Source: a phage. Taken from it: DNA of 64,000 bases. Positions 10,626 to 44,617 of the stretch are shown in pieces. Location: the NCBI GenBank assembly GCA_024674815.1, contig GCA_024674815.1_4104.1; one strand, 5' to 3'. Made by a program: the position numbers and the translations under genes. The notes under the pieces were generated by a model that searched no databases, had not been told where the DNA came from, and saw only the letters and a program-made list of their open reading frames with translations. The stretch's first letter is position 1. Every line of letters starts with the position of its first letter.

Positions 10626-11180
10626 TTATTTCAAAGAATCATAGTAAGCAGTGTCAAAGATTGGAGTCATAATAACATAGTCAATACGGTCAATGTAAGT
10701 TGAACTCCACATTTCTGGTTTGTCATAAAATTGACGCTCGCGTTCATTCATACGAGTCAGTACTTCTTCCAATTTACTACGTGAAGCCATCAATGTATTA
10801 CGCGATCCATAAGTGAAGTACTCAGTCCATTGATATTCATATTCAGTACTGATAGATTGAATAGTACCATCTTTGAAATGAGCTAATGCATAACCTTTCT
10901 CTACAAAGTTATCAGGTGGAAGAACACCATCTGGATTAGTTTTCAATGCTTTTTCTAACTTTTCTTTAATTTCAGTTAACGTGCATACTGAACGAATGTT
11001 CTTCAGGTTTGATACTTGAAAATCACTGTACTTTCCAAAGAAAAATACACGCCAATCTTTAGGTTCATTATCAGATACGGTAACATCAGGATGATGGGCG
11101 AGTAAACGAAGAAGGCCAGCTTTGTGACCGTTAATGTAGATTTCATGGATGTGGTTAGCAGTTTTCTTAAAAGTAATCAT
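10626..11180 (-). CDS. hypothetical protein
   Basis: 184-aa ORF directly downstream of consensus promoter. Confidence 0.65.
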   Translation of the reverse strand: MITFKKTANHIHEIYINGHKAGLLRLLAHHPDVTVSDNEPKDWRVFFFGKYSDFQVSNLKNIRSVCTLTEIKEKLEKALKTNPDGVLPPDNFVEKGYALAHFKDGTIQSISTEYEYQWTEYFTYGSRNTLMASRSKLEEVLTRMNERERQFYDKPEMWSSTYIDRIDYVIMTPIFDTAYYDSLK

Positions 11181-40540: not shown

Positions 40541-40630
<90 letters not shown>

Positions 40631-40642
40631 AGAAGTAAGATA

Positions 40643-40743
<101 letters not shown>

Positions 40744-40795
40744 GCCAAGAGTCGGCATAGGTGCAGCACTACAAAGTTCTTCAAGCTGCTTGGTA

Positions 40796-40827
<32 letters not shown>

Positions 40828-40828
40828 T

Positions 40829-40885
<57 letters not shown>

Positions 40886-40887
40886 TA

Positions 40888-41014
<127 letters not shown>

Positions 41015-41033
41015 GCATACTCGAAGTACCTCT

Positions 41034-41071
<38 letters not shown>

Positions 41072-41096
41072 AACTGAATACTTACATCCTACGTCC

Positions 41097-41438
<342 letters not shown>

Positions 41439-42323: not shown

Positions 42324-42749
<426 letters not shown>

Positions 42750-42765
42750 ATATCAATACTTAATA

Positions 42766-43143
<378 letters not shown>

Positions 43144-43149
43144 ATCACC

Positions 43150-43500
43150 AACTTTAATTAAAAAAATGGATGGTGACGCTTTTAAACGCCGCTGTTAATT
43201 CAGCTTTATAACCACCCGTTTTAACTTGCCTTTCGGCTACCTTGACGTGGGGCGTACAGGCTACTAAAAGCAACTACTGTAAACATATTTCCACGCCTTA
43301 CCCTTTTAAATAAAAGTCCATCCGGTTTTACAGTTTGGTGAAGGATAGTCACCTCTAGTTTAAACCTGCTAGTCAAGTAATAATTGCCTATCGTCCAATT
43401 ATCAAACCCGTCTAGGTTAACATTCACCACTTCCTAGAGTACCAGAGATCTTGTTCTGGATTGCATCGACGTAACTTACACCATATACGTCTGATTGTGG
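43150..43500 (-). ncRNA. candidate small stable RNA region in tRNA cluster
   Basis: ORF-poor; directly downstream of near-consensus promoter at 43506-43534; exact ends unknown. Confidence 0.25.
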
Positions 43501-43505
43501 AATTC

Positions 43506-43543
<38 letters not shown>

Positions 43544-43600
43544 ACAAATCTGGACGTTCATCTTTAAACATATTAATATCCTCAGTACTGAATTATTTAG

Positions 43601-44184
<584 letters not shown>

Positions 44185-44515: not shown

Positions 44516-44617
<102 letters not shown>

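Follow-up and report, generated by a model that had tools for sequence, protein, structure and literature searches.

Within the 64,000-nucleotide (nt) stretch of phage DNA analysed here (contig GCA_024674815.1_4104.1 of NCBI GenBank assembly GCA_024674815.1; hereafter the window), a minus-strand promoter and the protein gene at 42766-43143 enclose an interval of about 350 nt in the midst of a tRNA region, and in this interval we recognise two adjoining elements, which we call RNA-1 and RNA-2 (Table 1). The surrounding segment (~43100-43560) is 97-99.8% identical to jumbo coliphages of the 121Q/PBECO4 type (Asteriusvirus). ARAGORN places six tRNA genes in the window, on the minus strand between 40551 and 45813; the one closest to RNA-1, a tRNA-Ser at 42651-42740, lies 575 nt downstream, and RNA-1 itself is preceded by the promoter. 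The GC content is 39-45% from the promoter to the start codon at 43143, compared with 26-33% in the flanks, and resembles that of the neighbouring tRNAs. Comparison with other phages indicates, close to certainty, that the two elements are structured non-coding RNA genes and that no protein is encoded there.

The first-pass annotation of this DNA had proposed a single small stable RNA, transcribed from a consensus promoter. The RNA reading is supported by covariation, by minus-strand G-U pairs and by the position in a tRNA cluster, with stability itself a prediction, whereas the gap holds two RNA modules instead of one. The promoter, for its part, holds up as a sequence feature: as expected of a sigma-70 promoter, its minus-strand hexamers TTGACT and TATAAT match the consensus at 11 of 12 positions with 17 nt between them; a TG at 43513-43512 extends the -10 element, and the 17-nt spacer contains the palindrome TCAGTACTGA. 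A promoter scan over 1.3 kb returned one further site at 11/12; at a threshold of 9/12 it gave seven sites against 6.6 expected from shuffles, i.e., no excess. The same promoter is kept in 121Q and phAPEC6, and in mgL022 with TAAAAT as its -10 element, while the metagenome contig L024 carries a different TTGACT-17-TATAAT promoter, whose predicted +1 is the first conserved base of RNA-1.

The interval had also been described as lacking a convincing open reading frame (ORF), and this agrees with our results. Neither the ORFs of 69 amino acids (aa; 43221-43430, minus strand) and 62 aa (43461-43649, plus strand), both dismissed as spurious in the first pass, nor two others of 39 and 27 aa matched any Pfam or PHROG family, and their frames are not conserved in homologues. 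Stops occur in nearly every frame on both strands among 14 homologues of the conserved block, and our examination for a conserved small protein found no reading frame that is conserved in the interval. Conservation driven by one or more small proteins, such as the 69-aa product, could be argued from the annotation of a 'hypothetical protein' here in several deposited genomes and from the frame being open in the window. However, this ORF starts with GTG, its frame is closed in all homologues examined (Mm5 and KP13-16 keep an open stretch only in its 3' half), and stops or indels interrupt it in K64-1, PM2, SdyM006, Proteus phage 1, the Aeromonas phages and others. It also straddles the junction between RNA-1 and RNA-2, which is the site of a 40-nt insert in RaK2-type phages, and the substitutions within helices are compensatory, not synonymous. 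We consider a protein-coding explanation hardly credible, and the 'hypothetical protein' that many GenBank records place over RNA-1 a spurious annotation.

Fold of RNA-1 and its covariation

Covariation establishes for RNA-1 a predicted compact fold of seven hairpins (H1-H7) and three pseudoknots (PK-A, PK-B and PK-C), which is conserved and strand-specific. From 5' to 3' the order is the 5' strand of PK-A, H1, H2, the 5' strand of H3, the 3' strand of PK-A, the 3' strand of H3, H4, H5 with PK-B, H6 with PK-C, and H7. Two of the three pseudoknots, PK-A and PK-C, engage the first and the last nucleotides of the RNA, and the pairing of the 3' tail in PK-C fixes the 3' boundary of RNA-1.

Because neither MAFFT nor Infernal aligns the 5' half correctly across subfamilies, the pairs were counted on a structure-guided, segment-wise hand alignment of 21 distinct sequences, each of which was checked as a genomic substring and padded with N for pair counting. 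In this alignment, 98.5% of the 1061 cells are standard pairs and 35 of the 53 pairs are changed on both sides; none of 500 shuffles reached any of the five measures used, and pairing falls to 27-40% in slid controls, in which partners are moved by 1-3 columns. Since this alignment was fitted by hand, the count was repeated on a sequence-only MAFFT alignment. There, pairing holds in 85% of cells, with compensatory changes in 30 of 56 pairs, and it reaches 97-100% in H5, PK-B, H6 and PK-C, all of them in the 3' half, whose alignment is unambiguous. RNAalifold applied to the MAFFT alignment independently finds H5, H6 and most of H4 (five of seven pairs, plus 102-126). Moreover, conserved G-U pairs fit the minus strand only, as exemplified by U129-G139 in 20 of the 21 sequences. 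Conservation of the predicted structure in related phages, proposed in the first pass as a check, is thus seen as strong base-pair covariation that includes all three pseudoknots.

In the core of PK-A every cell is paired and three of four pairs are changed on both sides, with CCAC/GUGG in the enteric phages, GCAC/GUGC in the Aeromonas phages, CCUC/GAGG in KP13-16 and L030, and CUAC/GUAG in L007. Two-sided changes affect seven of the nine pairs of H1 (98.9% paired), four of the five of H2 (95%), all six of H3 (99.2%) and six of the seven of H4 (100%), to which G102-U126 may add an eighth pair. PK-B joins the H5 loop to a segment six nt downstream through an A-rich connecting loop; H5 is 99% and PK-B 100% paired, also in the MAFFT alignment, and PK-B varies as CUAG/CUAG, CUGG/CCAG, CAAG/CUUG and CAGG/CUUG. 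H6 is paired throughout (100%) in the variants GGUGA/UCACC, GGUUA/UAACC, GGUAA/UUACC and GGUCU/AGACC, and PK-C is about 97% paired, UCC/GGA being replaced by CCC/GGG and the fourth pair being G-C, A-U or U-A. H7 is the weakest helix (92.9% paired): it shows one compensatory change (L007) and has only two base pairs (bp) in the Aeromonas phages.

Table 1. Window coordinates of the promoter, a promoter-like site, the two RNAs and the structural elements of each
Feature	Coordinates	Strand	Details
Sigma-70-type promoter	43505..43534	minus	-35 TTGACT 43534-43529; 17-nt spacer; -10 TATAAT 43510-43505
Second, weaker promoter-like site	43575..43604	minus	TTGACT-18-GATATT; 9/12; 70 nt upstream of the main promoter
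RNA-1	43315..43504	minus	190 nt; RNA position n = 43505 - n in window coordinates
PK-A	43422..43503	minus	5' end with H3 loop: CCAC 43500-43497/GUGG 43430-43427; A/U part 43503-43501/AAU 43424-43422
H1	43465..43495	minus	RNA 10-19 with 32-40, A13 bulged; conserved loop motif GGYGUA
H2	43442..43459	minus	RNA 46-50 with 59-63; loop variable in length and sequence
H3	43411..43438	minus	RNA 67-72 with 89-94; loop is the 3' strand of PK-A
H4	43380..43402	minus	RNA 103-109 with 119-125; near-invariant loop motif GACGAUA
H5 + PK-B (H-type pseudoknot)	43355..43378	minus	H5 RNA 127-131 with 137-141; PK-B 133-136 (CUAG) with 147-150 (CUAG)
H6	43337..43353	minus	RNA 152-156 with 164-168; 7-nt loop CNNYCCU
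PK-C	43316..43346	minus	H6 loop (RNA 159-162) with 3' tail (186-189)
H7 (weakest helix)	43322..43333	minus	RNA 172-175 with 180-183
RNA-2	43160..43302	minus	about 140 nt; start codon of the next gene at 43143
RNA-2, 5' hairpin (long, irregular)	43244..43297	minus	
RNA-2, GAAA-tetraloop hairpin	43228..43237	minus	
RNA-2, Y-shaped three-way element	43168..43217	minus	
RNA-2, U7	43160..43166	minus	

An alternative 3-bp pairing of 148-150 with 172-174 (window 43357-43355 with 43333-43331) would extend H6 in competition with PK-B and H7; it has one compensatory event (CC2/AP1/P19) and two violations (L028a/b), and may reflect a conformational switch, a base triple or mere chance. Other candidate pairings were discarded. 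A long-range helix GUUUG (98-102)/CAAAC (168-172) and a terminal helix joining the 5' and 3' ends showed uncompensated one-sided changes in alignments judged by eye, and in the search of column statistics for further tertiary pairs the phylogenetic signal swamped the result.

Distribution and genomic context of RNA-1

The RNA-1 family spans at least six groups of virulent phages, infecting Enterobacterales and Aeromonas, that are otherwise unrelated. The block occurs in the T4-like Bragavirus (PM2, Pm5461 and Mm5, 91-93% identical; Shigella phage SdyM_006, 85%), in the T5-like Novosibvirus (Proteus phages 1, 2 and M4H10_20, 84%), in Klebsiella phage KP13-16 of the Stephanstirmvirinae (~72% over ~115 nt) and in about 20 Aeromonas phage-65-like genomes of Ishigurovirus and Ceceduovirus (77-83% over a 64-nt core), as well as in Alcyoneusvirus (RaK2 and K64-1), one 120-kb IMG/VR contig and several metagenome contigs. 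A covariance model built from 20 sequences (R1) returns 23 copies that score 120-211 bits; in the window it detects just one (206.4 bits, E 5e-51). As a negative control we used 625 kb of phage DNA from contigs of an A/T-rich pattern scan for the Y-shaped element of RNA-2 (64 IMG/VR matches, nearly all of them chance), in which the model found only RaK2 and a truncated phAPEC6 remnant. A pattern scan of metagenomes gave 10 matches, six contigs of which are true RNA-1 homologues; the two matches in genome contigs were both due to chance, and further IMG/VR pattern scans added no RNA-1 lineage.

RNA-1 always lies on the strand of the tRNAs. In other phages the conserved block is confined to the 190 nt, with tRNA genes on either side: its start is 0-2 nt downstream of a tRNA CCA in PM2, Pm5461, SdyM_006, Proteus phage 1, KP13-16, L030, L028 and the Aeromonas phages, a pattern that we count as five lineages, and Bragavirus and Novosibvirus copies have the next tRNA 5-13 nt beyond the end of the block. 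Elsewhere the upstream neighbour is a promoter (Asteriusvirus and L024), a Y-shaped hairpin with a U-tract (RaK2-type phages) or the stop codon of a coding sequence (CDS; Mm5). The 5' boundary is either the 3' end of a tRNA or a point at most about six nt from the predicted transcription start, and the 3' boundary is the last pair of PK-C.

A block that begins directly after an encoded CCA in five lineages could be a cis-acting processing element, possibly a self-cleaving ribozyme that cuts at its own 5' edge and so frees the 3'-CCA of the tRNA. This would suit the first nucleotides being drawn into PK-A, as happens in 5'-cleaving ribozymes, the many invariant unpaired nucleotides near the pseudoknots, and the two diverged copies around a tRNA-Arg in one metagenomic phage. 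Nevertheless, the fold is fully kept where there is no tRNA to release, i.e., after the promoters of Asteriusvirus and L024, after the hairpin and U-tract of RaK2 and K64-1 and after the stop codon of Mm5. Its strand order differs from the nested double pseudoknot of ribozymes like that of hepatitis delta virus (HDV), the ribozyme models of Rfam give no match at E up to 10, 190 nt would be large for a self-cleaver, and maturation of tRNA 3' ends is already explained by host RNase E and exonucleases. We regard such an element, the main rival to the interpretation given below, as distinctly unlikely.

Near-identical copies in unrelated phage families mean that the RNA gene can spread horizontally with tRNA cassettes. 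An identity of ~92% between unrelated phages points to recent transfer, and genes for homing or HNH endonucleases lie nearby in SdyM006, P19 and ZPAH1, so that the block might be thought to act as DNA, as the target of a homing endonuclease, a recombination hotspot or a protein-binding site that travels with the cassettes. Endonuclease-driven spread may account for the mobility but not for the pattern of conservation: helices and all three pseudoknots stay paired through compensatory changes down to ~70% identity, on the opposite strand the conserved G-U pairs would turn into A-C mismatches, and the orientation always matches that of the tRNAs. A DNA-level function as the cause of the conservation appears highly implausible.

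Neither a host counterpart nor a partner gene came to light. A blastn search of 5,426 E. coli genomes gave no match to RNA-1, and one of E. coli plasmids gave a single chance match of 32 nt; mimicry of a host RNA was discarded on this ground. An all-against-all blastp comparison of the ORFs flanking RNA-1 found no protein family common across the lineages.

Two observations concern single groups of copies. In metagenome contig ERZ808232 NODE-1756 (L028, 2104-2609), two diverged RNA-1 copies, scoring 178 and 190 bits, lie on either side of one tRNA-Arg. In the Aeromonas phage-65-like genomes, RNA-1 is separated from tRNA-Thr by an 87-nt spacer that is conserved together with RNA-1 (L005, 2581-2667, with equivalents in L009 and L012-L016) and has hairpin potential; this spacer may be a further small RNA.

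RNA-2 and the surroundings of the unit

The whole 350 nt are ~81% identical in RaK2 and K64-1, where a 40-nt insert with a TTGAAC-17-TATAAT promoter lies between the first 190 nt and the remainder; because this promoter-bearing insert parts RNA-1 from RNA-2, we treat the interval as two genes. RNA-2 is 85% conserved in these two phages. RNAalifold predicts 39 pairs from six sequences, five of them compensatory, and the z-score of the minimum free energy (MFE) is -2.6. Its range is restricted to Asteriusvirus and Alcyoneusvirus, with the exception of its 5' hairpin, which is shared with Kuravirus coliphages: Escherichia phage XT18 (L033) has at 1497-1574 a counterpart that is 81% identical and whose basal stem compensates, in a region of ~800 nt that is free of CDS, GC-rich and rich in hairpins. 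We considered whether RNA-2 might be a decayed tRNA, given an nhmmer extension into the tRNA-Asp of PM2 and a 7-bp acceptor-like stem, and rejected this: the alignment posterior is low, D and T arms are missing, and the interior is a single long hairpin.

At its 3' end, RNA-2 closes with the outer stem of the Y-element (GGGUGGU/ACCAUCC), followed by an A and by U7. A simple terminator scan makes no call on this branched hairpin, because the outer stem encloses two hairpins, and copies of RaK2 type have a U-tract of just 4 nt. In RaK2-type phages the Y-element is repeated: it stands directly upstream of RNA-1 and again after RNA-2 and after a tRNA-Ser; in addition to the window copy (43168-43217), the element lies at ~1440-1495, 1823-1888 and 3092-3156 of K64-1 (L017) and at three sites of L025. 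Its outer stems compensate (GGGUGGU/ACCAUCC, GGAUAGU/ACUAUCC and GGAUGAU/AUUAUCC), as do its inner hairpins, and a role as branched terminator or as processing signal is conceivable.

This arrangement raises the question of whether RNA-1 and RNA-2 together form a structured 5' leader, i.e., a riboswitch or attenuator that controls the gene at 42766-43143 through the hairpin and U7. The terminator-like element does end 17 nt before the start codon of that gene, and in phAPEC6, from which the RNAs are deleted, the same promoter directly drives the homologous gene. However, RNA-1 is conserved where it is bounded by tRNAs and no ORF lies downstream; across the family its downstream neighbour is a tRNA, a spacer or RNA-2, never a conserved ORF, which is not the placement expected of a riboswitch or leader. 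Moreover, a promoter parts RNA-1 from RNA-2 in RaK2, and the Y-element recurs after tRNA-Ser and upstream of RNA-1 in RaK2-type phages. Given the tRNA-bounded copies, the RaK2 promoter and the recurring Y-element, a leader role would be at most local and secondary, and we hold it to be very unlikely as the main explanation.

Several features of the wider neighbourhood are recorded here in their own right. The weaker promoter-like site upstream of the main promoter repeats the TTGACTAAATA-TTCAGTACTGA module of the latter. A palindromic box, T(T)CAGTACTGA, recurs in the window at 10842, 39265, 41188/41199, 43522, 43592, 58392/58403 and 59182; the copies at 43522 and 43592 lie inside the spacers of TTGACT promoters and have the form TTGACTAAATA[G/A]TTCAGTACTGA. 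The box may be a shared early-promoter or operator module. Next to tRNA-Ser(tga), the Rfam tRNA model scores 29.3 bits at 44539-44617 (minus strand), barely at its gathering score, where ARAGORN makes no call; this may be a degenerate or unusual tRNA.

A second ORF-poor stretch at 40630-41215 had been thought similar to the RNA gap, a likeness that did not survive comparison: the stretch is conserved only within Asteriusvirus and has no homology to RNA-1 or RNA-2. The segment 40625-41225 (minus strand) shows 79-100% identity within that genus, with indels, and contains the sequence TTGACA-17-TATAAT at ~40950-40920, which overlaps the ATG of a Lys-rich 38-aa ORF (40802-40918), which is followed by an overlapping 37-aa ORF (40702-40815). 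These two ORFs may be real small proteins.

Interpretation and comparison with known systems

Taken together, our results favour, with a probability of roughly 0.8, reading the interval 43150-43534 as a minus-strand non-coding unit that comprises RNA-1 followed by RNA-2, with a role directed at a host factor that we infer. In the window, a near-consensus host-type promoter would drive RNA-1 (190 nt) and then RNA-2 (~140 nt), and the transcript would end at the branched hairpin and U7 of RNA-2, just ahead of the next protein gene. RNA-2 would be either a second small RNA of narrower range or a structured 3' module of the RNA-1 transcript. In jumbo phages RNA-1 would be made from its own strong early promoter. 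In E. coli, tRNA maturation involves RNase P at tRNA 5' ends and RNase E with 3' exonucleases after the CCA. On the strength of this established pathway, we suggest that RNA-1 copies flanked by tRNAs may be released by host enzymes, namely by RNase P at the downstream tRNA and by RNase E and exonucleases at the upstream one. Since both ends of RNA-1 are predicted to be base-paired, it would be protected from end-dependent decay and should accumulate as a stable RNA.

RNA-1 moves between phages that share no proteins, and no partner gene accompanies it, which suggests action in trans on a component common to their hosts. That RNA-1 is a trans-acting RNA aimed at a conserved host factor is a tentative proposal, to which we would give somewhat less than an even chance. 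It might serve as a decoy or scaffold, and the likeliest target would be a component of translation, of tRNA or RNA metabolism, or of a tRNA-directed defence. Alternatively, RNA-1 may be a catalytic or self-assembling RNA of a new class, portable in the tRNA islands of T4-like, T5-like and jumbo enteric phages. It could then be a ribozyme at the junction of tRNA-CCA and RNA-1, or one otherwise acting on tRNA, or a small RNA-only assembly resembling ROOL or GOLLD; even jointly, we think these variants unlikely.

Several points weigh against the proposed unit. It is built from sequence comparison, and the decoy or scaffold role and the processing by RNase P and RNase E are inferred only. The 5' half was aligned by hand using the structure, which favours the structure, and the independent RNA-1 lineages number only ~6-8. 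In a scan of all column pairs, many single-column 'covariations' track the split between enteric and Aeromonas phages; because phylogeny inflates such signals, only contiguous helices and the slid controls carry weight. The MFE of RNA-1 for nested structures is no better than that of shuffles (z = -0.04), pseudoknots being outside that model. At two positions, 43346 and 43330 (RNA 159 and 175), the window copy departs from both 121Q and a metagenomic Asteriusvirus copy, and each substitution breaks a pair, giving A-C at 159-189 in PK-C and U-C at 175-180 in H7, where relatives have G175. With the -10 element at 43510-43505, the usual start would fall at about C5-A7, which would remove the A/U part of PK-A in the window phage. 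Finally, phAPEC6 and G17 (H99) retain the promoter but, of RNA-1, only the first 36 nt, the blastn match in G17 being confined to the first 42 nt; phAPEC6 (L034, 1470-1560), the one inspected, also lacks RNA-2, and its promoter now directly drives the homologue of the gene at 42766-43143. This natural deletion implies that the RNA locus is accessory or dispensable, and from hit lists several other Asteriusvirus genomes (e.g., Sharanji, CRJP21 and SHEFM2K) also seem to lack the RNAs.

RNA-1 corresponds to no catalogued family. ARAGORN finds no tRNA or transfer-messenger RNA in 43144-43510, and Rfam gives no match there even at E up to 10. Scans were made at gathering score and at E up to 10, with models that include those of GOLLD and ROOL, of the HDV-like, hatchet, pistol and twister ribozymes, and of glmS, riboswitches, 6S, Y RNA/YrlA and phage pRNA; in 43140-43515 the best scores among the 4227 models of Rfam 15 are 14.1 and 12.5 bits (E 4-6), compared with gathering scores of 40 and 33. 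An Aeromonas homologue has no Rfam match either. The Rfam scan proposed in the first pass thus leaves RNA-1 absent from Rfam 15. We found no description of it in the searchable literature, although it could be one of the 10,006 candidates that PMC10690425 leaves unnamed. We classify RNA-1 as a new RNA family within the tRNA-island-associated phage RNAs. Two functional analogies were tried and rejected: a CsrA-type sponge, since the GGA motifs of the loops are not conserved in the Aeromonas copies, and a UGG pairing of the H1 loop with tRNA CCA of the T-box or RNase P kind, since the two Aeromonas groups have CGG and UGA, respectively, in this loop.

The expectation that tRNA regions of T4 type hold additional stable RNAs is borne out by T4 itself, whose tRNA cluster has the annotated stable RNAs rnaC (species 1, 139 nt) and rnaD (species 2, 119 nt). 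These arise by processing of the tRNA precursor transcript. Like RNA-1, they are small non-coding RNAs that lie among the tRNA genes of a phage, directly next to some of them and on their strand. Homology is not indicated: local alignments with RNA-1 and RNA-2 gave chance matches of only 11-21 nt, and the R1 model has no match in the T4 tRNA region (L006). Moreover, rnaC ends in a tRNA-like T-arm and acceptor, whereas RNA-1 has no tRNA-like arm and is built on three pseudoknots, and, unlike rnaC and rnaD as compared here, RNA-1 is shared across phage families.

Theta ribozymes, which are HDV-like and occur in gut phages, reportedly free the 3'-CCA of a preceding tRNA. They share with RNA-1 a position immediately 3' of a tRNA (in five lineages of RNA-1), and the 5' end of RNA-1 lies in a pseudoknot; however, RNA-1 is about three times larger and is retained where no tRNA precedes it. 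It does not follow the HDV strand order P1-P2-P3-P3'-P1'-P4-P4'-P2', nor does it match an HDV-type model. In PA5oct, a jumbo phage related to 121Q and RaK2, abundant non-coding RNAs make up 2-5% of phage RNA-seq reads; they come from ORF-free regions in the terminal repeat and were reported to be without similarity to other sequences (PMC7318152).

A further close parallel in setting is offered by ROOL and GOLLD, RNAs of phages or prophages that are 'often near tRNA islands', multi-pseudoknotted and of unknown function; no protein partner has been identified for ROOL, and the two, at roughly 500-800+ nt, form 8- or 14-mer cages by cryo-electron microscopy (cryo-EM; PMC12286853). RNA-1 is likewise phage-borne, near tRNA islands and, with three pseudoknots, multi-pseudoknotted, but at 190 nt it matches neither covariance model and is carried by virulent phages of Enterobacterales and Aeromonas. 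With T4 RNA C/D, ROOL and GOLLD still without a function, RNA-1 would be a third, unrelated example of a tRNA-island RNA. It is small enough for routine structure probing, crystallography or cryo-EM, it is carried by virulent phages of E. coli, Klebsiella, Proteus and Aeromonas that can be cultivated, and a single genus offers natural variants with RNA-1 (121Q and PBECO4) and without it (phAPEC6 and G17). Hence, what such tRNA-island RNAs do for a phage should be directly testable with RNA-1.

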